Source: a virus (Duplodnaviria; Heunggongvirae; Uroviricota; Caudoviricetes). Taken from it: DNA of 19,870 bases. Positions 356-15,927 of this stretch are shown here, piece by piece (positions within the stretch are counted from its first letter, which is position 1; each line of letters opens with the position of its first letter). Below the pieces are notes generated by a model. That model worked only from the letters and a program-made list of their open reading frames with translations. It was not told where the DNA came from and did not search any database. The translations under genes and the position numbers were made by a program. The stretch is taken from the IMG/VR virus record IMGVR_UViG_2579778899_000005; one strand, given 5' to 3'.

Positions 356-370
356 GCAGTGAGGTACAGC

Positions 371-649: not shown

Positions 650-698
650 TTGATAACGGTTGTTAACTGTTTCTGGTATCGTGGCAGCAGGAGGAAAC

Positions 699-947
699 AT
701 GCCAGTGACATTTGAAGAAGTCCAGCAACATAAAAAGCTTCATGATTTTGATGATCTGGAAACCACGACAGTAAAAAAATATCGCCGGCTGCTTTCTTCC
801 GATGCGTTATTTTTTGTGGATCATCATGATTTTCTGCGTAGCTCACTGACTGGGGAAATTTTCGCAACCAACCGTGAGCAGGTGGAAGCGATGATCGAAT
901 ATCTGTGGAAAATAAGGCGCAGAATGCGTGATCCCGTGAAACGGTAG
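699..947 (+). CDS. Hypothetical protein (82 aa)
   Basis: ATG 699 preceded by AGGAGG 689-694, stop TAG 945-947, immediately followed by a strong hairpin terminator. No recognisable family. Confidence 0.5.
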   Translation: MPVTFEEVQQHKKLHDFDDLETTTVKKYRRLLSSDALFFVDHHDFLRSSLTGEIFATNREQVEAMIEYLWKIRRRMRDPVKR

Positions 948-953
948 AATAAT

Positions 954-985
954 AATGGCCTGGTATTTTCCAGGCCATTATTTTT
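954..985. terminator. Bidirectional rho-independent terminator between convergent genes
   Basis: Perfect 10 bp inverted repeat AATGGCCTGG (954-963) / CCAGGCCATT (970-979) with a 6 nt loop, followed by TTTTT 981-985 and preceded by an A-rich run on the other strand. Lies between the stops of the + gene (947) and the - gene (984). Confidence 0.65.
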
Positions 986-1457
986 AGAAGTCGATCTCTG
1001 TATCGCGATTAAATTCATCGCTAAGGTAAAGTGCTTCGCTTGGGCATTTTCCGTTTTCCAGTAATGTTTCCCAGAAATCTTTATCGAAACATCCCTCAAG
1101 ATACAGATAGCGGCAGATGTGAAGTAAATCACTTCGTGTCCATCCGTGCATGCTGCTACTTGTTACACCATATTCACTTTCTAGTTTATAGAATGTGAGC
1201 GCCTCCCGGTCGTGCCAGGCTTTGCACAGACGATCGTATATCTTTTTAGCTTTGTTTTTAGATGTGCCGAAAAACTCTTCGTAAATTTCATGTGGGCGAG
1301 TAGGAATACTTCCGTCGCCATCCTGCAAGAAAGGATAAACATCTGCCTCCCAGGCATACACGTAAGAATCGCTGAACTCATCATAGTGTTTACCAAGGTG
1401 GAGAATCTGCAATCGTTGCTGAATGAACATTGCTTTTTTCAGTTCATTTTCTGACAT
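984..1457 (-). CDS. Hypothetical protein (157 aa), AT-rich cargo or moron-like gene
   Basis: Minus-strand ATG (complement of 1455-1457) preceded by GGAGG (complement of 1466-1470) at 8 nt spacing. Visibly more AT-rich than flanking phage genes, with its own upstream region and a terminator. No recognisable domain. Confidence 0.6.
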   Translation of the reverse strand: MSENELKKAMFIQQRLQILHLGKHYDEFSDSYVYAWEADVYPFLQDGDGSIPTRPHEIYEEFFGTSKNKAKKIYDRLCKAWHDREALTFYKLESEYGVTSSSMHGWTRSDLLHICRYLYLEGCFDKDFWETLLENGKCPSEALYLSDEFNRDTEIDF

Positions 1458-1574
1458 AGTTCGTTCCTCCTGATTGACGAGCAGAAAATGTACGGAACAG
1501 CTTATTTATTTTTTCAGGTTTTGTAAATTATTTGTTCGTGGTTGTTCCAGGTTGTTCGGTGATTCTGGCTGATG

Positions 1575-1633
1575 TTTACATACTGATTTTTATGTATATG
1601 TTGGCGTGTGGCACTCAGACGTGAGCCGCCACA
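1575..1633 (+). promoter_or_regulatory. Candidate sigma70 promoter plus inverted-repeat operator or 5' hairpin upstream of the capsid operon
   Basis: TTTACA 1575-1580, 16 bp spacer, TATGTT 1597-1602, then inverted repeat TGTGGC (1607-1612) - N15 - GCCACA (1628-1633). Pattern-based only. Confidence 0.3.
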
Positions 1634-1648
1634 ATGCCGCCTGACCCC

Positions 1649-1683
1649 CTGCGCGATGCCGGGTTGATCTGCGAGATGCCGGG
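1649..1683 (+). repeat. Two 15 bp direct repeats CTGCG(C/A)GATGCCGGG spaced 20 bp apart
   Basis: Copies at 1649-1663 and 1669-1683 differ at one position. They sit about 70-100 bp upstream of the capsid start codon, suggesting a phased protein-binding site. Confidence 0.5.
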
Positions 1684-1751
1684 AGTGTCGGGCGGCGCTC
1701 CCTCCGTGTTGGTTTCACGTCCTGAATCTTAACCAATACGAGAAAACCTTC

Positions 1752-2897
1752 ATGAAGAAATTAATCGAACTCCGCCAGCAAAAAACCGCCCTGAAAAACC
1801 AGATGCGATCCCTGCTGGAAAAAGCCGACAGTGAAAACCGCAGCCTGAACGATGACGAAGGCAAACAGTTTGATGAACTGCGTGCAAAAGCCGATTCCCT
1901 CGACACAGAAATCTCCCGTCTTGAAGCTGTTGCGGATGAAGAACGTAACCAGCCAGGTGTTTCCGTCGAAGAGAAAATTACCAAAGACGAACTGCGCTCT
2001 TACATTCTGACCGGGGAAACCCGCAACCTGTCCGGCAGTGTCCCGGCTGATGGTGGTTATACGGTTATCCCGGAACTGAACAGAGAAATTATGCGTCAGC
2101 TTTCTGATGAATCGGTGATGCGTAAAATCTGTACCGTTAAAACCATTCACAGCAATGAATTTAAGCAACTGGTTTCTGCCGGGGGCGCGGTCGTTGAACA
2201 CGGCGAAGAAGGTGCGGCACGTAACCAGACGGCAACACCAAAACTGAATGAAGTCAGTATCCGCCTGTATCCGATCTACGCTTACCCGAAAACCACTCAG
2301 GAAATTATCGATTTTTCCGAAGTCGATATTATGGGCTGGTTATCTTCTGAAATTGGCGACACTTTCGTTGATACCGAAGAAACGGATCTGGTTTCCGGTG
2401 ATGGCGAGAAAAAAGCTAAAGGTTTCCTGGCTTTTCCGCGCACTGCGGATAACGACAAAACCCGTCCTTTCGGTACGCTCCAGACGAAAAAAGTTACTGG
2501 CAGTCTCAGCGCCGACATGCTGATTGACCTGAAATTTACGCTGCGCAATAAGTACCGCAAAAAAGCTGTATGGGTGATGAACTCAAATACAGCCGCCTCC
2601 GCACAAAAACTGAAAAATGCCACTGGTGATTACATCTGGCGCGATCGTTTACAGGCTGGTGATCCTGATTCTCTGCTGGGGCTTCCGGTTGAATATCTGG
2701 AATTTATGCCGGACGGTGTGATTGCAGTAGGTGACTTTAAGCGCGGTTATTTCATCGTTGACCATGAAACCGGTACGCGTACCCGTCCGGATTTCAGCGA
2801 ACCTGGATTCATTAACATCTATACCCAGAAATATCTGGGCGGTGGTGTGGTGGATTCGAACGCCATCAAGATTCTGGAAATTCAGGCTGGCAAGTAA
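1752..2897 (+). CDS. Major capsid protein, HK97 family, with N-terminal coiled-coil delta (scaffold) domain
   Basis: 381 aa. N-terminal ~100 aa is a charged coiled coil. C-terminal part carries HK97-fold motifs (KGFLAFP, GDFKRGYFIVD, GGGVVDSNAIKILEI). No separate scaffold gene. Confidence 0.9.
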   Translation: MKKLIELRQQKTALKNQMRSLLEKADSENRSLNDDEGKQFDELRAKADSLDTEISRLEAVADEERNQPGVSVEEKITKDELRSYILTGETRNLSGSVPADGGYTVIPELNREIMRQLSDESVMRKICTVKTIHSNEFKQLVSAGGAVVEHGEEGAARNQTATPKLNEVSIRLYPIYAYPKTTQEIIDFSEVDIMGWLSSEIGDTFVDTEETDLVSGDGEKKAKGFLAFPRTADNDKTRPFGTLQTKKVTGSLSADMLIDLKFTLRNKYRKKAVWVMNSNTAASAQKLKNATGDYIWRDRLQAGDPDSLLGLPVEYLEFMPDGVIAVGDFKRGYFIVDHETGTRTRPDFSEPGFINIYTQKYLGGGVVDSNAIKILEIQAGK

Positions 2898-2902
2898 TGA
2901 GC

Positions 2903-2927
2903 AAAGGGGGCTTCGGCCTCCTTTTTC
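2903..2927 (+). terminator. Rho-independent terminator or attenuator directly after the capsid gene
   Basis: GGGGGC (2906-2911), TTCG tetraloop, GCCTCC (2916-2921; one G-U pair), then TTTTT 2922-2926. Begins 6 nt after the capsid stop. Confidence 0.55.
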
Positions 2928-2946
2928 AGCTTTATGGAGTACACCG

Positions 2947-3507
2947 ATGAAAAATACCGATTTTGAAATCCGTACATCTGAACTGACCGCCTGCGATAAA
3001 AAACTGGTGGGTTATGCCGTTCGCTGGAACAGCCTTTCAGAAATTATCTGGGACGAATTCCGCGAACAGTTCACGCCGGGGGCTTTTGCTGACTATCTGG
3101 CGGCGGGTAATGATGTGCGCTGCCTGTATGAGCATGACTATACCCGACTGCTGGGGCGCACCAAATCCGGAACACTGGTACTGACTGAGGACAACACCGG
3201 GCTACGTTTTGAACTGACACCGCCTGATACCCAGCTTGGAAAAGATGTGCTTACGCTGGTGGAGCGTGGCGACATTACAGGAATGAGCTTTGGCTTTCGC
3301 GCATTATGCGAAGAGTGGAATATCGCGCAAAAACCGTATCTGCGCACTGTTACCGCCGCAGAACTTCGTGAAATCACGATAACGTCAATGCCTGCTTATC
3401 CCGAATCTGGCGTGGAGATTGCCCATCGTTCGTTGTTTGCACAGCACCCTGAATTACGCCCGGCAGGAAATAATCGTCATCGCTGGGCTGAACTGGCGGG
3501 GTTGTGA
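2947..3507 (+). CDS. Prohead maturation protease, HK97 (S78) family
   Basis: ATG 2947 with GGAG 2936-2939 at 7 nt spacing. Motifs GYAVRWN and GMSFGF are typical of HK97-family prohead proteases. Stop TGA 3505-3507. Confidence 0.85.
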   Translation: MKNTDFEIRTSELTACDKKLVGYAVRWNSLSEIIWDEFREQFTPGAFADYLAAGNDVRCLYEHDYTRLLGRTKSGTLVLTEDNTGLRFELTPPDTQLGKDVLTLVERGDITGMSFGFRALCEEWNIAQKPYLRTVTAAELREITITSMPAYPESGVEIAHRSLFAQHPELRPAGNNRHRWAELAGL

Positions 3508-3508
3508 T

Positions 3509-4723
3509 ATGTGGTGGCCTTTTAGTCGTAAAAAAAGCGATCTGCGTAACCTGTCCATTGATGATTTTCTGGCGCTGTCCGGCGTACCGAATACCGGATC
3601 CGGAGAATATGTTTCTGCCGGGACGGCTGAATCATTGCCTGCTGTGATGAACGCGGTTTCTGTCATCGCTGAGGCGGTGGCCACGATGCCGTGTTATCTG
3701 TATCTGGTACGCAATGACAAGGGCAGGGAGGCGCGGGAATGGCTGGACAGTCACCCGGTCGATATTCTGCTGAATGAGCAGCCTAATTCGTGCCAGACAC
3801 CTTACCAGTTTAAACGCACAATGATGCGTCACTGCCTGCTGAACGGTAACGCCTATGCGGTTATTGAGTGGGGGCGGGACGGTCAGCCAAAATCACTTCA
3901 TCCTTATGCGCCGGGGTGTGTTGTACCGGAACGCACTGGCGCACACAAATACCGCTATACCATCACCGAACCCTATACAGGAACGGTGCGCACGTATTTA
4001 CAGGAAGAAGTTCTGCATCTCCGCTATGCCTCGGATGATGGCTTTCTGGGGCGCTCCCCCGTCACGATTTGCCGTGAGGCGCTGGGGCTTGGCCTTGCTC
4101 AACAGCGTCACGGAGCCAGCATTATGAAAGATGGCATGATGGCGGCAGGGATTATCACGTCAGGCGAATGGCTGGACGGCGTAAAAGGTAAACAGGCATT
4201 AGACGCCCTGGAACGCTACAAGGGGGCGAAAAATGCCGGAAAAACGCCAATCCTTGAAGGGGGCATGGATTACAAGCAACTGGGGATGAGTAACCAGGAT
4301 GCGGAATGGCTGGCCTCCCGTCGCTTCTCCATTGAAGACATCGCCCGGATGTTCAACGTGTCGCCTATTTTTCTGCAGGAATACAGCAACAGCACCTACA
4401 GCAATTTCAGTGAGGCAAGCCGCGCGTTTCTGACCATGACAATGCGTCCGTGGCTGGCGAACTTCGAACAGCAAATCAAGGCCGCTTTGCTGGTGGCTTC
4501 TCCCGTACCTGGTACCCGTTATCTGGTTGAGTTTGATTCAGCCGATTTATTACGCGCCACCCCTACCGAACGTTACGCCACGTATGAGAAAGGGATTAAG
4601 AACGGGATCATGAATCCGAACGAAGCCCGCGAACGTGAGGGGATGCCGCCGCGTGAAGGTGGCGACGAATTCAGCCAGGCATGGAAGCAGACGGTGGAAA
4701 TTAAAGGTGAAAAAGATGAGTGA
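3509..4723 (+). CDS. Portal protein, HK97 family
   Basis: ATG 3509 lies 1 nt after the protease stop. 404 aa protein with the same overall pattern as the second portal in this window (NGNAYAV..., MDYKQLGMSNQDAEWLASRRFSIEDIARMFNVSP). Stop TGA 4721-4723. Confidence 0.9.
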   Translation: MWWPFSRKKSDLRNLSIDDFLALSGVPNTGSGEYVSAGTAESLPAVMNAVSVIAEAVATMPCYLYLVRNDKGREAREWLDSHPVDILLNEQPNSCQTPYQFKRTMMRHCLLNGNAYAVIEWGRDGQPKSLHPYAPGCVVPERTGAHKYRYTITEPYTGTVRTYLQEEVLHLRYASDDGFLGRSPVTICREALGLGLAQQRHGASIMKDGMMAAGIITSGEWLDGVKGKQALDALERYKGAKNAGKTPILEGGMDYKQLGMSNQDAEWLASRRFSIEDIARMFNVSPIFLQEYSNSTYSNFSEASRAFLTMTMRPWLANFEQQIKAALLVASPVPGTRYLVEFDSADLLRATPTERYATYEKGIKNGIMNPNEAREREGMPPREGGDEFSQAWKQTVEIKGEKDE

Positions 4724-5015
4724 AGAAAAAATTACACCTGATGAAGTCAGGGCACATCTTCGCCTTGATGACTTTTCCGGAGAAGGCGAACTTCTGAAAA
4801 TGTATACCGATGCGGCGCTGGAAGCCTGCCAGAAGCACATCGGGAAACGTTTTGAAGACGGTCTGGAATTTACCCCGGCAATGCGTGTTGGTTGCCTGAT
4901 GTACATCGCTTTTCTGTATGAGAACAGGGAAGCGGTTTCACCTGTGGAGCAGTCGGAACTGCCTATGGCTATTTCTGCGCTCTGGTCAGTTTATCGTGAT
5001 GTGGGGGTGTATTGA
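4716..5015 (+). CDS. Head-tail connector, gp6-like
   Basis: ATG 4716 overlaps the portal stop (ATGAGTGA) with AGGTG upstream. 99 aa, similar in size and pattern to the gp6-like protein at 12997-13302. Confidence 0.7.
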   Translation: MSEEKITPDEVRAHLRLDDFSGEGELLKMYTDAALEACQKHIGKRFEDGLEFTPAMRVGCLMYIAFLYENREAVSPVEQSELPMAISALWSVYRDVGVY

Positions 5016-5455
5016 TGCCGTGGCAACCATTAAGGCGTTGTACTGAACCGGGCTGTAATAAGCGTGTGAAGTCAGGCAAGTGTGAAGAGCACAGGCGGGC
5101 TGCATGGCGTGCAGAGGATGCCAGACGGGGACACCGCCGCGCGCGTGGGTATTCCCGACAGTGGGACAAATACCGCGCCCTGTATCTGAGCAAAAACCCG
5201 TTATGCGTGCGTTGTCTGGCTAAAGGTATTTATACGCCAGCTCTTGTGGTGGATCACATCATTCCCATCAATGGCGGCGGTGATGTTCTCTTCTGGCCTG
5301 AGTGGAATCACCAGGCATTGTGCCAGACGTGCCACAACCGTAAGACGACACGGGAAGATCCAGCCACGAAAGCGAACCGTAAGGCGGGCATGTATCGCGA
5401 GCAGGAAGAACGGGCGGCACATCGTAACGACTGGATGTATGGCGATGATGACTGA
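5015..5455 (+). CDS. HNH endonuclease (terminase-associated)
   Basis: ATG 5015 overlaps the upstream stop (TGATG). Cys-rich N-terminus and HNH core (VDHIIPINGGGD...WNHQALCQTCHNRKT). HNH genes adjacent to terS/terL are typical of cos-type HK97-like packaging modules. Confidence 0.85.
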   Translation: MPWQPLRRCTEPGCNKRVKSGKCEEHRRAAWRAEDARRGHRRARGYSRQWDKYRALYLSKNPLCVRCLAKGIYTPALVVDHIIPINGGGDVLFWPEWNHQALCQTCHNRKTTREDPATKANRKAGMYREQEERAAHRNDWMYGDDD

Positions 5456-5624
5456 ACAGGAGCAAAACAGGCTGATACGTGGACTGATAAGGCAGCGTGA
5501 CACATGGAAGGCACAGGAGACAGGGCACAAAGCCAACAGGACAGGGCGCACAGAACGCACCACAGCGAAGCGATTAACCGACCGTGACCGCGAGGTCATG
5601 GAATGTTTTCGCAATCGCTGGTGA
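5439..5624 (+). CDS. Possible small basic protein (61 aa); coding status uncertain
   Basis: ATG 5439 overlaps the HNH 3' end in another frame, stop TGA 5622-5624. Arg/Lys-rich, no clear RBS. May be non-coding sequence within a packaging-site region. Confidence 0.25.
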   Translation: MAMMTEQEQNRLIRGLIRQRDTWKAQETGHKANRTGRTERTTAKRLTDRDREVMECFRNRW

Positions 5625-5743
5625 GGCCGTCAGAGGGGGTGGGGGAGGTTTTCAGGACAAAACCGTCCCTGCCGGACACCGACCGCCTCCTCAAATTTTT
5701 GTGCACGGGAATTTTTTTGAAAATAATTGGGCGAAAAAAGAAC

Positions 5744-6100
5744 ATGGCAAGACCACCAAAAGCCCCCGCTTACCTGGATGAAATTGCGGTCAGGCAATGG
5801 AAGGAAAAATCGCGCCAGCTTTCCGTGCGGGAAGACCTTACCCCCGCCGACTGGAGCAATCTGGAGCTGTATTGCGTTAACTACTCCATATACCGCAAAG
5901 CCGTCGAAGACCTTGCGACGCGCGGGTTCAGCATTGTTAACAGTCAGGGCAGCGAGAGCAGAAACCCCGCCCTGAGCGCAAAGGCTGACGCAGAAAGAAT
6001 AATGATCAAAATGGCTTCTTTGCTGGGTTTTGACCCGGTAAGCCGCCGCAGAAATCCACCGGAAACAGAGGAAGAGGACGAGCTTGACCGCCTGGCATGA
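5744..6100 (+). CDS. Terminase small subunit, P27-family-like
   Basis: 118 aa beginning MARPPKAPAYLDEIAVRQWKE..., with the size and N-terminal pattern of P27-family TerS. Positioned between HNH and TerL. No strong SD before ATG 5744. Confidence 0.75.
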   Translation: MARPPKAPAYLDEIAVRQWKEKSRQLSVREDLTPADWSNLELYCVNYSIYRKAVEDLATRGFSIVNSQGSESRNPALSAKADAERIMIKMASLLGFDPVSRRRNPPETEEEDELDRLA

Positions 6101-7745
6101 GTACGCAGAAGGCGTAAAAAACGGCAAAATTACGGCCTGTAAACGACTGAAACAGGCCGTTAAACGGTATTTTTCTGACCTTGAAAACCCCCTTTACACG
6201 TTCGATCCGGAGGTCGTGGAGCGGTTTATTGCCTTTTCCAGGGTGTGTCCGCACGTAAAAGGCGCAATGCGCGGTAGCCCCATTGAGCTGGAGCCGTGGC
6301 AGCAGTTCGCCTTTGCCTGCATCCTGGGCTTTAAGGTTAAGGCCACCGGACGGCGCAAATACACCAGCGCATTCATTGAAGTACCGCGAAAAAATGCCAA
6401 ATCCACGGTCGCCGCTATCCTGGCTAACTGGTTTCTGGTTATGGAAAACGGGCAGCAGGATATTTACACCGCCGCCGTGAGTCGTGATCAGGCGCGGATC
6501 GTGTTTGATGATGCGCGTCAGATGTGCCTTTTATCCCGACCGTTACGAAAGCGGGTAAATATTCAGGCACACAAGGTGATACACCCGAAAACCAACAGCC
6601 TGTTAAAGCCACTGGCAGCAAAAGCGGCAACCATTGAGGGGACAAACCCGAGTCTCGCCATTGTGGATGAATATCACCTGCACCCTGACAACGGGGTTTA
6701 TTCCGCGCTTGAACTGGGAATGGGGGCGCGTCCGGAGGGGTTATTATTTGCCATCACCACATCGGGGAGCAACGTTGTTTCAGCCTGTAAACAACACTAC
6801 GACTATTGCTGCCAGATACTGGATGGTGAAGAGGTGAACGAATCCATGTTCGTGCTTATTTACGAGCTGGATGATGAAAGCGAGGTTGACGATCCGGCGA
6901 TGTGGATAAAGGCGAATCCCAATATCGATGTTTCCGTCGATCGTGAAAAACTGGCCTCAACCATCCAGAAAGCGCGGGGTATTCCGTCGCAGTGGGTGGA
7001 AATGCTCACCAAGCGATTCAATATCTGGTGTCAGGGGGCTACGCCGTGGATGGGTAACGGTGCATGGGCGGAGTGCGCCGGAACGTTCGCGGAGGCGGAT
7101 TTATACGGGCAGGAGTGCTACGCGGGGCTGGACTTATCATCAACTAGCGATATTTCCAGCGTGTGCTATGCCTTTCCGGTCGGTAAAAAGATTATGCTGG
7201 TTTCCCGTCACTATCTGCCGGAATTTCAGCTACAGAACCCCGCCAATAAAAACCGCGCCATCTATCGCCAGTGGGTAAAGGCGGGCTGGATACGCACAAC
7301 ACCGGGTGACTGCATTGATTATGACCGTATCCGTGATGACATCATGGCGGATGCAGAGAATTTCAATATCAGGCTGGTGGGCTTCGATACATGGAACGCC
7401 ACGCACCTGAGGACGCAGCTACAGGGGGCAGGATTTGAGGTGGAGCCGTTCCCGCAAACATACCTTCGTTTCAGTCCGGCGGCGAAATCGTTCGAAGTTT
7501 TTGTTAACCGGAAGGTGATTGTGCATCGTGGCGATCCGGTGCTGGCCTGGTCAATGAGTAATGTTGTGATGCAGAGTGACGCGAACGCCAATATCAAGCC
7601 GAACAAGAAAAAATCATCCAACAAGATAGACCCGAGCGTTGCGGCGCTGATGGCGTTTGGCACATTCCAGGCAGAGCATGAGGAATTTGCATTTGATATG
7701 AGCGACAGCCACAAAGAGCGGCTTGCGGCGTTTGATGGGGTATGA
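6084..7745 (+). CDS. Terminase large subunit (ATPase plus nuclease domains)
   Basis: 553 aa. Start taken as TTG 6084 (AGAGGA 6073-6078 upstream), overlapping the terS end; start codon choice is uncertain. The C-terminal half aligns by eye with the truncated terminase fragment at 8737-9462. Confidence 0.9.
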   Translation: MTAWHEYAEGVKNGKITACKRLKQAVKRYFSDLENPLYTFDPEVVERFIAFSRVCPHVKGAMRGSPIELEPWQQFAFACILGFKVKATGRRKYTSAFIEVPRKNAKSTVAAILANWFLVMENGQQDIYTAAVSRDQARIVFDDARQMCLLSRPLRKRVNIQAHKVIHPKTNSLLKPLAAKAATIEGTNPSLAIVDEYHLHPDNGVYSALELGMGARPEGLLFAITTSGSNVVSACKQHYDYCCQILDGEEVNESMFVLIYELDDESEVDDPAMWIKANPNIDVSVDREKLASTIQKARGIPSQWVEMLTKRFNIWCQGATPWMGNGAWAECAGTFAEADLYGQECYAGLDLSSTSDISSVCYAFPVGKKIMLVSRHYLPEFQLQNPANKNRAIYRQWVKAGWIRTTPGDCIDYDRIRDDIMADAENFNIRLVGFDTWNATHLRTQLQGAGFEVEPFPQTYLRFSPAAKSFEVFVNRKVIVHRGDPVLAWSMSNVVMQSDANANIKPNKKKSSNKIDPSVAALMAFGTFQAEHEEFAFDMSDSHKERLAAFDGV

Positions 7746-8035
7746 CGAGAATGAGCGAAACCGAACTACTAAAAATAATCCGCCGCGTTACCGGAATCAG
7801 CCAGGAAGCAGGCAAACAGGAGGCCACGCAGCCGGACAGCGTGATAGCCGAAAATTACGCGCGTGTGGTGGCTGAGGTGATGCGCCGTGACGGTATCGAG
7901 CTTAACGGCGTGGATATACGCAATATACGCACCAGAGTTCTGGAGTTGTTGTCATATCGTCGCCGCGTGGAGATGTACCAGGAGAAAGAAAAAATTACTT
8001 ACCACTGGAAGAAGCCGGAGCGGTTACGACGTTAA
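7742..8035 (+). CDS. Hypothetical protein (94-97 aa), translationally coupled to terL
   Basis: ATG 7742 overlaps the terL stop (ATGA); alternative ATG at 7751. Stop TAA 8033-8035. No recognisable family. Immediately followed by a phased repeat array. Confidence 0.5.
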   Translation: MTRMSETELLKIIRRVTGISQEAGKQEATQPDSVIAENYARVVAEVMRRDGIELNGVDIRNIRTRVLELLSYRRRVEMYQEKEKITYHWKKPERLRR

Positions 8036-8041
8036 CTTGTG

Positions 8042-8090
8042 GTGACATACCGTGACGGAGAGTGACAACCAGTGACACACAGTGACAAAA
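8042..8090 (+). repeat. Five tandem GTGAC(A) motifs at exact 10 bp periodicity
   Basis: GTGAC at 8042, 8052, 8062, 8072 and 8082 (GGTGACATAC CGTGACGGAG AGTGACAACC AGTGACACAC AGTGACAAAA). One copy per helical turn, starting 7 nt after the stop of ORF 7742-8035. Confidence 0.75.
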
Positions 8091-8108
8091 AGACGGTATT
8101 TAAATAGA

Positions 8109-8137
8109 GTGGGTGTTTAATACCCCCCGTTTTTTTT
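8109..8137 (+). terminator. Possible weak terminator (short imperfect stem plus T8 run)
   Basis: GGGT (8111-8114) can pair with ACCC (8122-8125), followed by C-rich bases and TTTTTTTT 8130-8137. The stem is weak, so this is tentative. Confidence 0.35.
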
Positions 8138-8289
8138 CGTGTGGTGCATGGTCAAAATGACCACGGAGAAGATACGCACCGAAGCAGAACAATTACCGTA
8201 GGTTAAAGCGACAGTATTCACACCAGCAACCTGATTATCAATTTTCAGCCGTTCGGTGGCATCACTGGCCCCATTTTCCTGATGGGGTT

Positions 8290-8442
8290 GCGGGTTATTT
8301 GGGGGGTATTTGCGGGTTATTTTGAATGTCTCGCGGGTTACGCTTTGGCTAATATTCAAACGCATCATTTTTTAACGCATTGATATTAAAGAATAAAAAA
8401 TACTTAGCAAGCGAAGATAACCCGCTAACCCGCATAACCCGC
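8290..8442. repeat. Iteron-like repeat clusters: 3x GCGGGTTA(T) at ~22 bp spacing, an AT-rich core, then 3x inverted TAACCCGC in tandem
   Basis: Direct copies start at 8290, 8312 and 8333, with a degenerate GGGGGTATTT copy at 8301-8311. Reverse-complement copies at 8418-8425, 8426-8433 and 8435-8442. They flank a ~75 bp AT-rich segment (8343-8417). A 12 bp GTATATATATAC palindrome follows at 8451-8462. Confidence 0.75.
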
Positions 8443-8629
8443 ACTGTTTTGTATATATATACGAAAAATTGCATTCAGGGGGGTGATCGAAATTTCTACT
8501 GCCTCTTATCTCTTTGAGTGCTCACCTCGTCAGATTGTTACACACAAGAAATAAAAAATGCTTCGCGATGGTAGGTCGAATCACTGTATCAAAAAACGGT
8601 GTGTATCAGCATTAAAACAATACAGATAC

Positions 8630-8650
8630 GTGTATTGCGCTGTGTATTGC
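8630..8650 (+). repeat. Tandem GTGTATTGC repeat (2 copies, 12 bp apart)
   Basis: Copies at 8630-8638 and 8642-8650, with a related GTGTATC at 8601-8607, in AT-rich non-coding DNA. Confidence 0.6.
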
Positions 8651-8736
8651 TTGATGATTTATAAAGACTGTTTTTTCATGTTAAACGATTGATATACAGG
8701 TGATTTTAAAAAACTTGAAATATTCTTACCAAACAC

Positions 8737-9462
8737 ATGAATGTGTGGGTAACAGCAGAGTCTGCCTGGATGGACATGATTAAGTGGGAGAAGTGCGAAT
8801 ACATTGCCCCACGACATGAGCTGAAAACGTATCCCATGTGGGTCGGCGTTGACCTTGCTCATAAGATTGATATCTGTGCGGCGGCAAAACTCTGGCGAAC
8901 GGATAACGGGCATGTTCATGCCGATTTTAAATTCTGGCTTCCGGAAGGACGGCTGGAACGATGCTCGCGGCAGCAGGCAGAACTTTACCGGAAGTGGGCG
9001 GAGATGGATAAGCTGATTCTGACGGATGGTGATGTTATCGATCATGCTCAGATAAAAAGTGACTTACTGGAATGGATTGGTGGTGAAAACCTCAGGGAAC
9101 TGGGATTTGACCCGTGGAGCGCGATGCAGTTCAGCCTGGCACTGGCTGAAGAAGGGATACCGCTGGTGGAGGTTCCGCAGACGGTTCGCAATCTGTCAGA
9201 GGCCATGAAGGAAACGGAATCACTGGTCTATGCCGGGCGTTTCCATCACAGCAATCATCCGGTCATGAACTGGATGATGTCTAACGTTACGGTAAAACCG
9301 GACAAAAACGACAATATCTTCCCGAATAAATCCACGCTGGAAGCCAAAATCGACGGCCCTGTTGCGATGTTTACAGCAATGAGCCGGATGCTGGTCAATG
9401 GTGGTGAACCGGAGCTGGATCTGTCTGAACATCTGGTCAGCGTGGGCATCCGCTCGCTTTAA
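8737..9462 (+). pseudogene. Terminase large subunit remnant: C-terminal nuclease half only, N-terminal ATPase domain absent
   Basis: The 241 aa ORF aligns by eye with the C-terminal ~240 aa of the intact TerL at 6084-7745 (NVWVTAESAWM vs NIWCQGATPWM; VGVDLAHKID vs AGLDLSSTSD). An in-frame stop at 8716-8718 and a lack of SD upstream indicate truncation near 8720-8740. Confidence 0.7.
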
Positions 9463-9473
9463 CCGAGGTCATT

Positions 9474-9656
9474 ATGTTTCTGATAATTCTCGCGCCACTG
9501 GTGGGCGTGCTGGGTGCGCTTTTGCTGGCGTATGGTGCCTGGCTGATTTATCCCCCGGCGGGTTTTGTTGTTGCCGGGGTGCTGTGCCTGTTCTGGTCGT
9601 GGCTGGTGGCGCGATATCTCGACCGTACACAGCCGTCTGTCGGCGGAGGTAAATAG
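9474..9656 (+). CDS. Small hydrophobic protein (60 aa, two predicted transmembrane helices)
   Basis: ATG 9474 with GAGGT 9465-9469. Sequence is dominated by two hydrophobic stretches ([25 protein letters not shown] and [20 protein letters not shown]). Stop TAG 9654-9656 overlaps the portal GTG start. Confidence 0.45.
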
Positions 9657-10897
9657 TGTTCTTTTCGGGATTATTTCAACGAAAAAGTGACGCGCCGGTG
9701 ACCACACCAGCAGAGCTGGCGGATGCCATCGGGTTGTCTTACGACACCTATACCGGAAAGCAGATCAGCAGTCAGCGGGCCATGCGACTGACGGCGGTTT
9801 TTTCCTGCGTCAGAGTGCTGGCAGAGTCGGTCGGGATGTTGCCCTGCAATCTGTATCACCTGAACGGCAGCCTGAAACAGAGGGCCACCGGCGAACGTCT
9901 GCATAAGCTGATCTCCACGCATCCCAATGGCTATATGACGCCGCAGGAGTTCTGGGAGCTGGTGGTCACCTGTCTGTGCCTGAGGGGAAACTTTTACGCC
10001 TACAAAGTGAAAGCATTTGGCGAAGTGGCTGAACTGCTGCCCGTCGATCCCGGTTGTGTGGTACCGAAGCTTAACAGTCGCTGGGAGCCGGTCTATCAGG
10101 TCACATTCCCGGACGGTTCCACGGATGTACTGAGCCAGGAAGATATCTGGCATGTGCGCACGTTGACGCTGGACGGTCTGGTGGGACTGAATCCCATCGC
10201 CTATGCCCGCGAGGCAATATCGCTGGCAGCAGCGACCGAAGAGCACGGGGCCAGACTGTTCAGCAATGGTGCGGTGACGTCCGGTGTGTTGCGTACAGAA
10301 CAGACGCTGTCGGATCAGGCTTATGAGCGCCTGAAGAAAGATTTTGAGGAGCGTCACACCGGGCTTGGCAATGCTCACCGCCCGATGATCCTTGAGATGG
10401 GGCTGGACTGGAAGTCGATGGCGCTGAACGCCGAGGACAGCCAGTTCCTGGAAACCCGCAAGTTTCAGCTTGAAGAAATCTGTCGTCTGTTCCGGGTGCC
10501 GTTGCACATGGTGCAGAACACCGATCGCGCCACCTTCAACAATATCGAAGAGCTGGGGCTGGGATTTATCAACTATTCACTGGTGCCGTATCTGACCCGC
10601 ATCGAACAGCGGATCAACACCGGACTGGTACGAAAAAGTAAGCAGGGCGTTTATTACGCCAAATTTAACGCCGGGGCGTTACTGCGCGGGGATATGAAGT
10701 CCCGTTTTGAAGCCTACGCCACCGGGATCAACTGGGGAATTTACTCTCCCAATGACTGCCGCGACCTGGAAGATATGAATCCGCGTCCCGGTGGGGATGT
10801 CTATCTCACACCGATGAACATGACCACGAAACCCTCCGATGGCAGTAAAGCCGGTAAGCAGAAGGATAACGCCAATGCAGACGAAACAACGTCTTGA
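9656..10897 (+). CDS. Portal protein, HK97 family (second copy)
   Basis: GTG 9656 with GGAGG 9645-9649 at 6 nt spacing. 413 aa with portal pattern (RGNFYAYKV, LDWKSMALNAEDSQFLETRKFQLEEICRLFRVP), paralogous to the portal at 3509-4723. Confidence 0.9.
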   Translation: MFFSGLFQRKSDAPVTTPAELADAIGLSYDTYTGKQISSQRAMRLTAVFSCVRVLAESVGMLPCNLYHLNGSLKQRATGERLHKLISTHPNGYMTPQEFWELVVTCLCLRGNFYAYKVKAFGEVAELLPVDPGCVVPKLNSRWEPVYQVTFPDGSTDVLSQEDIWHVRTLTLDGLVGLNPIAYAREAISLAAATEEHGARLFSNGAVTSGVLRTEQTLSDQAYERLKKDFEERHTGLGNAHRPMILEMGLDWKSMALNAEDSQFLETRKFQLEEICRLFRVPLHMVQNTDRATFNNIEELGLGFINYSLVPYLTRIEQRINTGLVRKSKQGVYYAKFNAGALLRGDMKSRFEAYATGINWGIYSPNDCRDLEDMNPRPGGDVYLTPMNMTTKPSDGSKAGKQKDNANADETTS

Positions 10898-11525
10898 TGT
10901 ACCGCTGAGTCTGAAATCTGTCAGTGACTCCGGTGAGTTTGAAGGGTATGGCTCCGTCTTTGGTGTAAAGGACAGCCACGATGATGTGGTGATGTCCGGG
11001 GCATTTGCTGCTTCCCTGCGGGCGTGGAGTGACAGAAAAGCGTTACCTGCGCTGCTCTGGCAGCACCGCATGGATGAACCCATCGGTGTTTACACCGAAA
11101 TGAAGGAAGACGATGTCGGGCTTTACGTCAGGGGACGGTTGCTTATTGATGATGATCCCCTTGCAAAACGCGCACATGCACACATGAAGGCCGGTTCGTT
11201 AACCGGCCTTTCTATTGGGTACGTCCTGAAAGACTGGGAATACGACCGGAGCAAAGAAGCCTTTCTGCTGAAAGAAATCGACCTCTGGGAAGTCAGCCTG
11301 GTGACGTTCCCGTCTAACGACGAGGCGCGGATCAGCGACGTCAAGAACGCACTGGCCCGCGGGGAAATCCCCGAACAGAAAAAAATCGAAAGAGTCCTGC
11401 GTGATGTCGGACTCTCCCGTACCCAGGCCAAAGCATTCATGGCCGGGGGCTATGGCGCACTGTCCCTGCGCGACGCTGAGGATGTGGGCTCTGCACTGAA
11501 TGCACTGAAAAATCTGAACTTCTAA
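10875..11525 (+). CDS. Prohead maturation protease, HK97 (S78) family (second copy)
   Basis: Preferred start ATG 10875 (GAAGGA 10861-10866 upstream); an alternative ATG at 10839 has no SD. Motifs GYGSVFGV and LSIGY. Overlaps the portal 3' end. Stop TAA 11523-11525. Confidence 0.8.
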   Translation: MQTKQRLDVPLSLKSVSDSGEFEGYGSVFGVKDSHDDVVMSGAFAASLRAWSDRKALPALLWQHRMDEPIGVYTEMKEDDVGLYVRGRLLIDDDPLAKRAHAHMKAGSLTGLSIGYVLKDWEYDRSKEAFLLKEIDLWEVSLVTFPSNDEARISDVKNALARGEIPEQKKIERVLRDVGLSRTQAKAFMAGGYGALSLRDAEDVGSALNALKNLNF

Positions 11526-11539
11526 TCAGGAGAAATACG

Positions 11540-12745
11540 ATGGCGGTTGATATTAAAGATGTCGAACAGGTCGCGCAGGAGCTGCAGCAGAAGTTTGACG
11601 ACTTCAAAGCAAAGAACGACAAGCGCGTGGATGCGATTGAGCAGGAAAAAGGCAAACTTGCCGGGCAGGTGGAAACCCTGAACGGGAAACTCAGCGAGCT
11701 GGAAAACCTCAAAAGCGATCTTGAAAAAGAGCTGCTTGAGCTGAAACGTCCGGCAGGTGGTGCGCAAAATAAACTGGCCACCGAGCATAAAGAAGCGTTT
11801 GTGGGCTTCCTGCGTAAAGGCCGTGAAGATGGTCTGCGCGATCTGGAGCGCAAGGCATTACAGGTGGGCACCGATGAAGACGGCGGCTATGCCGTGCCGG
11901 AAGCACTGGATCGCAACATTCTCACCCTGCTGAAAGATGAAGTGGTGATGCGCCAGGAAGCCACGGTGATCACCGTTGGTGGTTCCGACTACAAAAAACT
12001 GGTGAATCTGGGCGGCACGGCTTCCGGATGGGTTGGCGAGACTGACGCGCGCTCCCAGACTGCCACCTCCAGACTGGGCCTGATTGAACCTTTCATGGGG
12101 GAAATCTACGGTAACCCGCAGGCCACCCAGAAAATGCTGGATGATGCCTTTTTCAACGTGGAAGCATGGATCAACAGCGAGCTGGCAACCGAATTTGCCG
12201 AACAGGAAGAAATTGCCTTTACCACCGGCGATGGTACCAAGAAGCCGAAAGGGTTCCTGGCGTATGAGTCCACGGATGAAACCGACAAGGTCCGGGCGTT
12301 CGGCAAACTTCAGCATATTGTATCCGGCGAAGCGACGGCGGTGACCGCAGATGCCATTATCAAACTGATTTACACGCTGCGAAAGGCACACCGCACTGGC
12401 GCGAAGTTCATGATGAACAACAACAGCCTGTTTGCCATCCGTCTGCTGAAAGACACCGAGGGTAACTATCTGTGGCGTCCGGGGCTGGAACTGGGGCAGC
12501 CGTCCTCTCTGGCGGGTTACGGTATCGCTGAAAACGAACAGATGCCGGATATTGCCGCTGATGCGAAAGCCATTGCATTTGGTAACTTCAAACGGGGTTA
12601 CACCATCGTTGACCGTATCGGTACCCGCATTCTGCGTGACCCGTACACCAATAAACCGTTTGTCGGTTTTTATACCACCAAGCGCACCGGCGGCATGCTG
12701 GTCGATTCGCAGGCCATCAAACTGCTGAAGATTGCAGCGGCGTAA
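11540..12745 (+). CDS. Major capsid protein, HK97 family with delta domain (second copy)
   Basis: ATG 11540 with AGGAG 11528-11532. 401 aa with N-terminal coiled coil and HK97-fold motifs (KGFLAYE, GNFKRGYTIVD, GGMLVDSQAIKLLKI). Paralogous to, but diverged from, the capsid at 1752-2897. Confidence 0.9.
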   Translation: MAVDIKDVEQVAQELQQKFDDFKAKNDKRVDAIEQEKGKLAGQVETLNGKLSELENLKSDLEKELLELKRPAGGAQNKLATEHKEAFVGFLRKGREDGLRDLERKALQVGTDEDGGYAVPEALDRNILTLLKDEVVMRQEATVITVGGSDYKKLVNLGGTASGWVGETDARSQTATSRLGLIEPFMGEIYGNPQATQKMLDDAFFNVEAWINSELATEFAEQEEIAFTTGDGTKKPKGFLAYESTDETDKVRAFGKLQHIVSGEATAVTADAIIKLIYTLRKAHRTGAKFMMNNNSLFAIRLLKDTEGNYLWRPGLELGQPSSLAGYGIAENEQMPDIAADAKAIAFGNFKRGYTIVDRIGTRILRDPYTNKPFVGFYTTKRTGGMLVDSQAIKLLKIAAA

Positions 12746-12750
12746 TCATT

Positions 12751-12776
12751 CAGGGGGCGCAGAAGTGCGCCCCCTG
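12751..12776 (+). terminator. Strong stem-loop (terminator-like or attenuator) directly after the second capsid gene
   Basis: 11 bp stem CAGGGGGCGCA (12751-12761) / TGCGCCCCCTG (12766-12776) with loop GAAG, followed by a weak T-rich tract TTCT. Confidence 0.45.
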
Positions 12777-12796
12777 TTCTGACAGGTGAAAGAATC

Positions 12797-12985
12797 ATGA
12801 TCCTGAAACAAGATCTGAAATGGTCACCGGACGGTATGCGTGTTGAGATTATTCGGGCCGGTGAGTATGAAGATAAAGAATTACCCAAACGGGTACGCGA
12901 AATTGCCACTGCAGCTGGGATTGTCTCTGATAAGAGAACACCTGTTGCGCGGGGGGCTGATAAGTCTAAAAAACAGCATTCATAG
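12797..12985 (+). CDS. Hypothetical small protein (62 aa)
   Basis: ATG 12797 with AGGTGA 12784-12789, stop TAG 12983-12985. Sits between the capsid and connector genes. No recognisable family. Confidence 0.5.
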   Translation: MILKQDLKWSPDGMRVEIIRAGEYEDKELPKRVREIATAAGIVSDKRTPVARGADKSKKQHS

Positions 12986-12996
12986 AGGTTGCCCAA

Positions 12997-13302
12997 ATGA
13001 TGCCCACTCTGGAAGAGCTTCGTGTTCAGTGCCGGATTGATGATGACAATGAACAGGAGAATTCTCTTCTTATGATGTATCTGGCTGCTGCTAGGGAAGA
13101 GGCTGAAAAGTTTTTAAACCGGACGCTTTACGATGAAACTGTTTCTGAGCAGGATACGACCGGGATTGTAATAACACCTCTGATAAAACTGCGTCTTATG
13201 CAACTGGTTGGCTACTGGTACGAGAACAGGGAAATGCAGGATGCAGTGCCTGATTTTTTCTATACCGGACTGCGGATGTATCGATTTCATCCCGGAACAT
13301 AG
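12997..13302 (+). CDS. Head-tail connector, gp6-like
   Basis: ATG 12997 with AGAGG upstream. 101 aa with size, position and pattern of gp6-like connectors (compare 4716-5015). Confidence 0.7.
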   Translation: MMPTLEELRVQCRIDDDNEQENSLLMMYLAAAREEAEKFLNRTLYDETVSEQDTTGIVITPLIKLRLMQLVGYWYENREMQDAVPDFFYTGLRMYRFHPGT

Positions 13303-13310
13303 GAGGATTC

Positions 13311-13649
13311 ATGCAGGCAGGAAGATTACGTGATCGTGTGGTTATTCTGAATGCCACCACCGTTCGGTCTCCGTCAGGGCACCCTGTGGAAACAATGACG
13401 GAGGGGGCAACCATATGGGCAGAAGTTAAGGGGATCAGTGGCAGGGAGAGAATATCCGGAGGCGCAGAAACTGCTCAGGCTACAGTGAGGGTCTGGATGA
13501 GATTCCGGCGAGATGTAACTGCAACTTCATGTCTGAAAGTGCTGACTGGTGCATTCAAAGGCGCGATTCTGAGTATAGACGGTCCGCCGATACCGGATGC
13601 TCGTGCCACACGGCTTGAGATACTCTGTTCTCAGAAGGGGAATGTGTGA
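13311..13649 (+). CDS. Head closure / head-tail joining protein
   Basis: ATG 13311 with AGGAGG 13301-13306. N-terminus MQAGRLRDRVVILN is typical of phage head-tail joining proteins. 112 aa. Confidence 0.7.
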   Translation: MQAGRLRDRVVILNATTVRSPSGHPVETMTEGATIWAEVKGISGRERISGGAETAQATVRVWMRFRRDVTATSCLKVLTGAFKGAILSIDGPPIPDARATRLEILCSQKGNV

Positions 13650-14095
13650 TGGATTTCAGTCTTGATTTTTCAGGTCTGGCGGATATTGCACGGGATCTGG
13701 AGACGCTCAGCAGGGCAGAAAACAATAAGGTACTGCGCGATGCCACCCGTGCCGGTGCTGAAGTTATGCGGGATGCAGTTGTTGAACGTGCGCCGGAGCG
13801 AACCGGGAAACTGAAGAAAAATGTGGTTGTTCTCACTCAGCGTTCAAAGCGTCGGGGGGAAATTATCTCGGGTGTCCACATTCGTGGACGGAACCTGCGA
13901 ACCGGAAACAGTGATAACAGCATGAAAGCCAGTGATCCCCGAAATGCGTTTTACTGGCGCTTTGTGGAGCTGGGAACGATAAACATGCCCGCGCATCCGT
14001 TCATTCGCCCAGCTTTCGATACGACAGAGGAACTGGCAGCACAGATTGCCATACAGCGAATGAATCAGGCTATTGATGAGGTCTTAAGTAAATGA
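13649..14095 (+). CDS. HK97 gp10-family tail/neck component
   Basis: ATG 13649 overlaps the upstream stop (GTGATG). 148 aa with the pattern of HK97 gp10-family proteins (...RDATRAGAEVMRDAVVERAPERTGKL...). Confidence 0.65.
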   Translation: MDFSLDFSGLADIARDLETLSRAENNKVLRDATRAGAEVMRDAVVERAPERTGKLKKNVVVLTQRSKRRGEIISGVHIRGRNLRTGNSDNSMKASDPRNAFYWRFVELGTINMPAHPFIRPAFDTTEELAAQIAIQRMNQAIDEVLSK

Positions 14096-14436
14096 GAGAG
14101 ACCACACTGTATTCCCTGCTGTCTCAACTGGCCGGAGGACAGGTTTATCCTTATGTGGTCCCGCTGACGGAGGGAAAGCCTGCGGTATCTCCGCCATGGC
14201 TGGTATTTTCTGTGGTGTCTGACACTGCGTCTGATGTGCTTGATGGTCAGGCTGAATCCAGAATTACCGTGCAGATCGATGTCTGGGCAACAGTACCTGA
14301 TGACGCAGATGATATCCGTGAGCAGGCGCTTGATGCGGTAAGGCAACTTGCACCTTCCGTTATTTCTAAAACTCAGGGTTATGATCCTGATTCCCGTCTG
14401 AGCAGATCCACGCTTGAATTTCAGGTAATAGCCTGA
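14092..14436 (+). CDS. Tail completion/terminator-like protein (DUF3168-like)
   Basis: ATG 14092 overlaps the upstream stop (ATGA). 114 aa with motifs VYPYVVP and RITVQIDVWA. Occupies the usual tail-completion position before the major tail gene. Confidence 0.55.
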   Translation: MRETTLYSLLSQLAGGQVYPYVVPLTEGKPAVSPPWLVFSVVSDTASDVLDGQAESRITVQIDVWATVPDDADDIREQALDAVRQLAPSVISKTQGYDPDSRLSRSTLEFQVIA

Positions 14437-14456
14437 GGTCGTTAATGATTTTACCC

Positions 14457-14480
14457 ACCCGCCGCTGGCGGGTTTTTTAT
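14457..14480 (+). terminator. Rho-independent terminator between the neck genes and the major tail gene
   Basis: ACCCGCC (14457-14463), loop GCT, GGCGGGT (14467-14473), then TTTTTT 14473-14478. The major tail RBS (CAGGAGA 14484-14490) and ATG 14496 follow. Confidence 0.55.
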
Positions 14481-14495
14481 TTTCAGGAGACGAGT

Positions 14496-15200
14496 ATGTC
14501 CTCTAATTTTGAGCGTTCGCAACTGACGAAAATTATGATTTCGTCTGCACCGGTAACAGCAGAAACCCTGGATTCTGCCAGCTATCTTGGCCTGAGCTGT
14601 ACAATCAAAGAGGTGCAGTTTACCGCAGGACAAAAGCAGGATATTGATGTCACCACGCTGTGTTCTGTTGAGCAGGAAAATATTAACGGCCTTGGTGCCG
14701 CGTCAGAGATTTCCATGTCAGGCAACTTTTACCTCAATGCTGCCCAGAACGCGTTGCGCAGTGCCTATGACAATGACACCACGTATGGCTTTAAAGTTAT
14801 TTTTCCGTCAGGCAACGGATTTACCTTTATGGCAGAGGTGCGTCAGCATACCTGGTCTGCAGGAACTAATGGTGTTGTGGCTGCAACGTTTTCCCTGCGC
14901 CTGAAAGGTAAACCTGTGCTGACGACAGAGCCGCTGAAAGTGAAGGTCGATTTAAACAGCACGCTGCAGGTTTCTGCCGGAGCGAAACTCGAAATGGTGG
15001 TTGAGGCTGCCGGTGGTGTGCCGCCTTATTCTTATGTCTGGAAGAAAGGTAGTTCTCCTGTTTCCGGACAGACGGCGGCAACATTCAGTAAGGCATCAGC
15101 AGCATCAGGTGATGCCGGTGCGTATACCTGCGAGATTTCTGATTCAGCAAGCCCTGTTAACAAGGTGACCTCCACTTCCTGCACTGTTACCGTCAGTTAA
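14496..15200 (+). CDS. Major tail (tube) protein with C-terminal Ig-like domain
   Basis: ATG 14496 with GGAGA upstream. 234 aa. The C-terminal ~80 aa has Ig-like features (alternating beta pattern, GAYTCEISD motif), as in lambda gpV-type proteins. Stop TAA 15198-15200. Confidence 0.75.
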   Translation: MSSNFERSQLTKIMISSAPVTAETLDSASYLGLSCTIKEVQFTAGQKQDIDVTTLCSVEQENINGLGAASEISMSGNFYLNAAQNALRSAYDNDTTYGFKVIFPSGNGFTFMAEVRQHTWSAGTNGVVAATFSLRLKGKPVLTTEPLKVKVDLNSTLQVSAGAKLEMVVEAAGGVPPYSYVWKKGSSPVSGQTAATFSKASAASGDAGAYTCEISDSASPVNKVTSTSCTVTVS

Positions 15201-15586
15201 TGAGGATAGATGTGATGACTAAAAATATCCGCAATCTGGCACTGGCAACGATGTCGGGGTTTCGCCATAAAACTGTTGATGTGCCTGAATGGGAAGGGGC
15301 AACGGTTGTATTACGGGAACCTTCTGCAGAAGCCTGGTTGCGCTGGCAGGAGATCGTTAAAGCAAAAGATGATGAGACACCGTTATCCGTTGCGGAGCGC
15401 GCCCGCCGAAATCTGGAGGCAGATGTTGAACTGTTCATTGATGTTCTGTGTGATACCGGACTGCAACCTGTATTTTCAGAGGATGATCGTGAACAGGTGA
15501 TTGCCGTGTATGGCCCGGTGCATGCGCGGCTTCTTCGGCAGTCTCTGGAACTGATCAGTGATGCCGGCGAGGTTAAAAAAAAGTAG
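15200..15586 (+). CDS. Tail assembly chaperone, G-like (zero-frame product)
   Basis: ATG 15200 overlaps the major tail stop (TAATG). 128 aa ending EVKKK-stop. Lies immediately upstream of the tape measure gene and ends in a slippery A-run. Confidence 0.75.
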   Translation: MRIDVMTKNIRNLALATMSGFRHKTVDVPEWEGATVVLREPSAEAWLRWQEIVKAKDDETPLSVAERARRNLEADVELFIDVLCDTGLQPVFSEDDREQVIAVYGPVHARLLRQSLELISDAGEVKKK

Positions 15587-15888: not shown

Positions 15889-15896
15889 GTCAACAT

Positions 15897-15917
15897 AACC
15901 GCTTCGGCGGTTTTTTT
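15897..15917 (+). terminator. Rho-independent terminator or attenuator between the G/T chaperone and tape measure genes
   Basis: ACCGC (15898-15902), TTCG tetraloop, GCGGT (15907-15911), then TTTTTTT 15911-15917. The tape measure start follows 11 nt later. Confidence 0.5.
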
Positions 15918-15927
15918 CGTCCGGAGA

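Follow-up and report, generated by a model that had tools for sequence, protein, structure and literature searches.

The stretch of DNA analysed here, referred to as the window, is 19,870 bp long and consists of a satellite (1-8720) and the prophage around it (8720-19870). Judged by its sequence, the element is a capsid-forming, helper-embedded PICI inserted in terL of a lambdoid prophage. It encodes its own capsid (1752-2897), prohead protease (2731-3507), portal (3419-4723), HNH protein (5012-5455), P27-type TerS (5603-6100) and TerL (6084-7745), all recognised by Pfam, and carries a doubled attP motif. Full-length relatives (related loci are given as L numbers) add int, alpA and a primase-helicase to this PICI gene set, and in annotated relatives int, alpA, DUF927 primase-helicase and SSB come first, with the head and terminase genes behind them. 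The C-terminal (nuclease) half of the interrupted prophage terL is located at 8720-9462 on the plus strand (truncated TerL nuclease domain in Pfam at 8737-9462), while the N-terminal half is found left of the island integrase in L002. A second portal gene follows at 9656-10897 (Pfam), and the capsid, tail and tape-measure genes past it match annotated genes of L002. Helper-embedded PICIs at the site A:Terminase_1:245 were described by Tommasini et al.; the same configuration is seen in strain PEC240 and in the window. The window recombinant was not found as such among 5426 complete E. coli genomes: it matches yifB-type islands up to ~8493 and prophage-terL-type islands from ~8268.

The last late-zone gene of the satellite is a small ORF of 97 aa (7742-8035, plus strand; phrog_1561, function unknown). 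Its first ATG, at 7742, shares bases with the stop codon of terL (ATGA, 7742-7745); RefSeq relatives place the start at a later ATG, 7751. The ORF holds this terminal position in three different PICI architectures and is encoded at 80 viral-contig loci. It has no Pfam or NCBIfam match, is assigned to PHROG 1561 only, and has no sequence match in the PDB. The AlphaFold model is all-helical with three helices (pLDDT 66) and gave no Foldseek match at E ≤ 0.001. The small ORF as a recognisable DNA binder was set aside on this predicted structure, which has no match to a DNA-binding fold or family.

Five GTGAC pentamers follow on the plus strand (8042-8086). Further downstream a hairpin GGGTGTTTAATACCC with a subsequent T-run (8111-8137, plus strand, from a terminator scan; the hairpin itself 8111-8128) looks like an intrinsic terminator by its sequence. 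After it comes a palindrome-containing stretch (ATGGTCAAAATGACCACGG..., 8148-8201), which is kept across many satellites and could encode a peptide of 17 aa, or 45 aa in L005. A minus-strand ORF at 8117-8368 runs across both the terminator and the iterons described below. Some RefSeq relatives list it as hypothetical protein (L001 16333-16668); it has no family match and is probably not a gene. Among the relatives, the zone past the small ORF is a mosaic of short, freely shuffled modules. Each module consists of a perfect hairpin (e.g. CCTCAATTTGAGG or GCGCAAAATTGCGC) between recurring joints GGCGCGGTAACTnnnTGATATT and CTAACCCGTTGATTCTTCC, the first joint opening with the stop codon region of the small ORF itself. 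Such modules are located at 17387-17830 of L005 and also in L131, L146, L156, L181 and others.

The GTGAC array and its cassette

The pentamers start at 8042, 8052, 8062, 8072 and 8082 and are spaced by exactly 10 bp. The spacers read ATACC, GGAGA, AACCA and ACACA in 5' to 3' direction; cttgtg precedes the first pentamer and aaaaagacgg follows the last. An earlier note, made from the letters alone, had described five GTGAC motifs in exact 10-bp phasing beginning 7 nt past the small ORF. Both statements were confirmed: all five starts agree, as does a shuffle test, and with the TAA at 8033-8035 the array begins at the seventh base after the stop codon. A scan of the 19,870-bp window for GTGAC-N5-GTGAC-N5-GTGAC (≤ 1 mismatch) found the array only, and three phased copies were obtained in 0 of 200 dinucleotide-preserving shuffles. 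The word GTGAC as such is not enriched in the window (45 sites vs 37 ± 6 expected). The array is real and non-random.

Within the array the cores are identical at 25/25 positions, and 11/25 spacer positions depart from the spacer consensus. By hand calculation the chance of all 11 differences landing in spacers is ~1e-4. Moreover, 12 homologous array variants at other loci show 6 substitutions over 20 spacer positions vs 1 over 25 core positions, and the copy number varies by whole 10-bp units (5, 4 in two different forms, 3). On these sequence comparisons the array is constrained at the pentamer and satellite-specific. The GTGAC repeat is without mention in the satellite literature searched, in which the array is undescribed.

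Identical sites on one helical face, with a fixed core, free spacers and maintained phasing, suggest a platform for cooperative protein binding. This general idea had been put forward in the earlier note and is the most reasonable one, but the three analogues named there (tyrosine integrase arm sites, plasmid partition centromeres, terminase-binding sites) all fail, as detailed below. Intrinsic curvature across the array is average in a wedge model, a result of low weight. The MatP site matS is GTGACRNYGTCAC; a MatP/matS reading was set aside because the array has no inverted half-sites. A -35/-10-like match at 8082-8110 was rejected as a promoter, as the -10 element is TAGGGG or TCGGGT in relatives and hence not conserved.

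The array is part of a 73-bp cassette (8038-8110, plus strand) consisting of the array and AAAAAGACGGTATTTAAATAGAG. Alignment of the window to the PEC240 island and prophage gives 98.3% identity over 1519-8037 and 97.4% over 8111-19870. The sole stretch of 1519-19870 that does not align is 8038-8110. There PEC240 has unrelated DNA instead, a hairpin/Chi cassette of 71 bp. With island and prophage otherwise shared, this exchange indicates, at the level of sequence, that the cassette is dispensable in this island. It is present in 281 of 5426 complete E. coli genomes (~5%). The array part of the query had no match among 50,697 phage records.

The array is common to islands at yifB (L001), in prophage terL, beside clpS (L003) and beside yejO (L004), and the yifB, clpS-side and yejO-side islands each have a different integrase. 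It accompanies three types of replication genes (DUF927, primase, RepA helicase) and differing packaging genes, namely P27-type TerS with HNH and TerL, or Nu1-type TerS. Presence or absence was scored among those small-ORF loci with enough downstream DNA. Where present, the array has 5, 4 or 3 copies and starts at +9, +91, +258 or +404 from the match end. Many of the small-ORF loci have no array, including two with a 98-100% identical ORF, and islands with the array and islands lacking it can share an ORF of 100% identity (L131, L133).

Cos sites of the satellite and its relatives

The spacer between HNH and terS (5625-5743, plus strand) is the probable cos of the capsid-forming satellite, as its layout is that of the HK97 genome ends. 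These consist of a G-run, ~35 nt, GACCGCCGCCAAA, the cut and GTTTGAATTTAACGCTAACCCGATTTTTTT. The counterparts in the window are a G-run (5635-5648), CACCGACCGCCTCC as predicted cut region (5677-5691) and T-tracts (5696-5700 and 5712-5718). HK97 TerS binds one 15-bp A-tract site 15-29 bp past the cut (PMC11331095). No mapped cos site was found in the capsid-forming PICI literature searched.

The array was rejected as a TerS site of this own cos, which is 2.3 kb away. The same distance to an HK97-type cos upstream speaks against the terminase-binding site proposed in the earlier note; nor does the array track the TerS type. It occurs with both P27-type and Nu1-type TerS, and the DNA-binding N-termini of Nu1-like TerS are identical in array-positive and array-negative satellites. 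A cos motif was not found near 8042-8500 of the window. A satellite cosB of the Rpp/lambda type was likewise discarded: neither cos1, the published satellite cosB of EcCICFT073, nor cos2 (published supplement) has a GTGAC array. The AlpA-like and Nu1-like proteins of L004 had no match to Rpp or any terminase among PDB sequences.

A different picture emerges from relatives with a second, helper-type cos at the right end. In six satellites (L138, L141, L142, L147, L148, L155) the same cassette precedes, at a distance of 25 bp, the hairpin GGGGGGTGTTTAATACCCCC, after which comes GGGGGGATCGAAATCC...GGGACCGCCCGCCTACCCTTGTTCACATCGCCGCAGGTTCGAAAACTTTTTTT, an HK97-type cos (layout aligned by eye with L138, L141 and L147). 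This region has the layout of the HK97 genome ends and matches HK97-like phages; with the HNH-terS spacer in the host-type prophage it shares homology at 79% identity. The predicted cut motif in the right-end cos satellites is ACCGCCCGCC. The six satellites have no TerL of their own and presumably use the helper-type right-end cos. The window keeps the hairpin 8111-8128, but the T-run and unrelated DNA replace cos. These relatives make a link to packaging plausible, in another manner than the earlier note had suggested.

In L003 and L004 the array is located ~130 bp upstream of a helper-type cos. L173, L174, L177 and L180 have a second type of GTGAC array ~100 bp off the same cos side, in opposite orientation and with Chi in between. 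Altogether, of 14 loci with a right-end cos, 12 have an array 25-135 bp upstream of its G-run; of 38 loci without such a cos, 11 have an array. Fisher's test gives p = 0.003 (computed with 11/14, L180 being counted out), which is indicative only since the loci are related. An accessory of cos would be expected within ~200 bp of a helper-type cos in related elements, and this is where the array is found; the window itself is without this cos.

Some minimal satellites contain ~2.3 kb without sizeable ORFs (L173 3660-5970), which hold an inverted helper-type cos, Chi and a GTGAC array resembling the 5' part of the organizer gene introduced below. Satellites repeatedly have Chi sites (GCTGGTGG) a short way inside their predicted right DNA end (L002 18366-18373; L173 ~5008; L180 ~2636 and ~2755), in an orientation that would suit RecBCD entering at cos. 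The window has seven Chi sites on the plus strand (3255, 4489, 7373, 9162, 9602, 9958, 19262) and none on the minus strand.

Based on these comparisons, our leading explanation is that the array represents a phased protein-binding accessory of the right-end cos module of satellites, orphaned in the window. We put its probability at roughly one in three. Anatomy, conservation pattern, cassette swap and the association in position with cos are shown by the sequences; protein binding, the ligand and a part in packaging are inferred. The array would be a cis-acting phased element in the right-end cis zone of enterobacterial PICIs, the full module having the order small ORF (phrog_1561), GTGAC array, hairpin and helper-type HK97-like cos. 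Five pentamers one turn apart would align several copies of one DNA-binding protein on one face of the DNA. In the full module this would happen roughly 90-220 bp inside the DNA end generated at cos, on the last-packaged side. The resulting nucleoprotein structure would help the satellite cos to compete for, or be terminated by, the helper terminase, or it would protect the end. The satellite of the window, with its own capsid, terminase and cos between HNH and terS, would have lost the right-end cos. As an own cos is present and only array and hairpin remain of the right-end module, the array in the window is probably a dispensable orphan.

The arrangement has a parallel in lambda, where cosB (R1-R3 with the IHF site I1) and cosQ are likewise repeated short sites near the cos cleavage site. 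For both, assembly of a nucleoprotein complex that governs the specificity or the termination of packaging is assumed, and in relatives the array is located within ~90-220 bp of the predicted cut. In contrast to cosB, the array would occupy the side of cos that is packaged last, the place of cosQ in lambda. Three 16-bp R sites in cosB stand against five identical pentamers in strict 10-bp spacing in the array, which tracks no TerS type and has no adjacent cos in the window.

Several observations speak against a cos accessory. No island gene, the ProQ-like and AlpA ones included, tracks the array. GTGAC arrays upstream of cos are absent from phages with this cos type, and hence the helper terminase does not need one. 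The orientation of the array relative to cos is inconstant. Moreover, 11 loci including the window keep a perfect array without nearby cos, which is unexpected if its sole role were at cos.

Competing explanations

The main rivals of the cos accessory are a functionless, decaying relic and orphan iterons of the helper type. The former would be a leftover of a cos module or an organizer gene, captured along with its flanks, whose core was selected in that source and not in this island. We regard this as possible, albeit doubtful. It would fit the exchange of the cassette for unrelated sequence where island and prophage are otherwise 97-98% identical, the lack of an array in most relatives, even in some with an identical small ORF, and its position in a shuffled mosaic of short hairpin modules. 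The sign of ongoing selection is also weak, with 6 spacer vs 1 core substitution among the variants. Against it speak the five intact cores here and in many cassette-bearing genomes, the exact phasing in the copy-number variants and the two different array types sharing one place relative to cos.

Orphan iterons would connect the array to the replication of the helper. A widespread family of phage replisome organizers has YGTGAC repeats at 10-11 bp within its own gene, usually followed by GATAAA- or GAGAAG-type repeats, and the motif is kept down to 25% protein identity (L331 16386-17456; L206 5017-6057; L068, L080, L229, L239, L256, L263, L322 and others). A description of this motif was not found in the literature searched. 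In E. coli the genes are annotated as 'DnaT-like' or 'phage replisome organizer' and lie between cro/ydaT and a P-like gene. As the organizer arrays fall in all three reading frames, they represent DNA signals, presumably origin iterons. The array of the window could then consist of orphan origin iterons of the helper type, bound by the O-like organizer of the resident lambdoid prophage, and would recruit helper replication or titrate the organizer. We consider this rather unlikely. That such iterons serve as an organizer landing pad, by which the satellite taps or throttles helper replication, we likewise regard as improbable.

Pentamer, phasing and copy number (4-6) are shared with the organizer arrays, which are spaced by 10 bp in 106 cases and by 11 bp in 21. 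A gene with these arrays is present in 2186/5426 E. coli genomes (~40%). The prophage hosting the PEC240 satellite has such a gene, with arrays at 16514-16545 and 16774-16815 of L331 followed by a GATAAA-rich stretch. Pattern scans of the whole genome and viral collections were dominated, among the matches listed, by simple 10-bp minisatellites in unrelated bacteria; among the 113 non-simple GTGAC arrays listed, 55 are in or beside organizer homologs (25-91% identity), so that the motif and the organizer family go together. Furthermore, the satellite array of the L173 type matches an organizer array plus 11 nt of flank at 30/36 positions.

Known systems offer parallels. The lambda ori inside O, as an example of iterons within a lambdoid organizer gene, shares the GTGAC/GTCAC core, the 10-11 bp spacing, 4-6 copies and free spacers. 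Cloned lambda iterons together with oop block cognate phages (PMC3349717). This 'inhibition phenotype' and P1 incA are, as the array would be, cases of initiator-type sites away from the origin on a multicopy replicon. The array would differ from titration or handcuffing of the incA type in that its putative initiator would come from outside the satellite, being a product of the helper prophage.

The details of the sequence do not fit well, however. Organizer iterons have a pyrimidine right before the core in 96% of 104 units (C 76%, T 20%; A 3%, G 1%), whereas the units of the window are preceded by G, C, A, A and A, so that only one of five conforms to YGTGAC. The spacers are A-rich in the satellite array and A-poor in organizer arrays. 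An AT-rich flank is located on the opposite side relative to the motif orientation, and the long AT-rich unwinding stretch is absent from the matching side in the window. The cos-adjacent position is left unexplained by iterons. In addition, replication and packaging modules of lambdoid phages assort independently, HK97 and mEp235 having other O types. An organizer homolog was not found in the window or in the complete islands, and the array lies outside any organizer gene.

An element acting at the RNA level appears very improbable. GUGAC repeats at the untranslated 3' end of the late operon would bind or sequester either a complementary RNA or an RNA-binding protein. Consistent with this, the array is always situated between stop codon and terminator-like hairpin on the sense strand of the late operon in loci of the window and L003 types, the array stretch is predicted to be largely unstructured, and a ProQ/FinO-like protein is encoded in some satellites. 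The presence of its gene does not follow that of the array, though. Rfam gave no match, predicted folding does not exceed that of shuffles (z = -0.73), and the arrays of the L173 and L180 types lie outside a late-transcript context and in either orientation.

Arm-type sites bound by the island tyrosine integrase or the excisionase AlpA to build a recombination complex are hardly tenable. Arm sites are typically phased direct repeats, GTCAC is part of the lambda arm consensus, and phased repeats also occur near the ends of other satellites, e.g. three TTGTTCG at 10 bp in L003. Such sites are expected within roughly 50-250 bp of the crossover core, as a rule on both arms. From the end of the array at 8086 it is ~635 bp to the crossover. 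We place the latter near 8721, where the prophage terL frame resumes, based on the clade's own arm motif cgTGTATTGCgctgTGTATTGCt, doubled (TGTATTGC doubled) at 8629-8652 (plus strand). This is the published motif of the integrase clade at the published position: the attP arm motif of helper-embedded PICIs, tgTGTATTGCantgTGTATTGCa, is found 81 ± 2 bp upstream of the crossover (PMC10111431). Like the array, this attP arm motif (Tommasini et al. 2023) consists of short direct repeats in the non-coding right end, but it differs in motif, position and arrangement of copies. Complete islands (L001, L004) have no second GTGAC cluster. The same array occurs with yifB, prophage-terL, clpS-side and yejO-side integration, i.e. 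with at least four integrases or att sites, and PEC240 shares integration site and attP arm motif, yet has no array. The integrase arm sites suggested in the earlier note were therefore abandoned. At the ends of other satellites three TTGTTCG at 10 bp and a doubled GGTGTAGTTAAT were observed (L003 9585-9640, L005 18100-18153, L052 ~6060-6100), which are probably the arm sites of the respective integrases and give a picture of arm sites in this satellite group.

A partition centromere, the remaining analogue, can be dismissed since the complete relatives have no annotated partition genes (no ParA/ParB or ParM/ParR in the RefSeq annotation of L001, L002, L004 and L005, nor among the Pfam matches of the window ORFs).

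The array as the island's own origin was rejected as well: the island iterons are GCGGGTTA, and the array occurs with DUF927, primase and RepA-type genes. The GCGGGTTA octamers are located at 8290-8442, three direct (8290, 8312, 8333) and three inverted (8418-8442) around an AT-rich stretch; in L001, L002 and L005 they recur immediately past the 3' end of the gene for the DUF927 primase-helicase. By sequence the cluster at 8290-8442 is a second copy of the island's own origin-type iterons. Islands have two such clusters, one after the DUF927 gene and the other at the right end (L001 8358-8473 and 16590-16735; L002 10332-10447 and 18590-18735), reminiscent of ori plus crr in satellite P4.

Meaning for satellites and their helpers

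The results bear on the question of how HK97-type helpers (TerS, TerL, HNH) recognise the DNA of gram-negative satellites for packaging. Two candidate cos sites were located: that of the island itself, between HNH and terS, and the helper-type copy at the right end of relatives, beside which a satellite-specific repeat was identified. The natural cassette swap between the island of the window and that of PEC240 provides a ready-made isogenic test. A replication-level interface between satellite and helper via orphan iterons was not found described in the literature searched; if the array binds the helper organizer, it would constitute such an interface and thus a new kind of interaction. If the array instead modulates packaging or end protection, it would give a handle on the competition of satellite versus helper.
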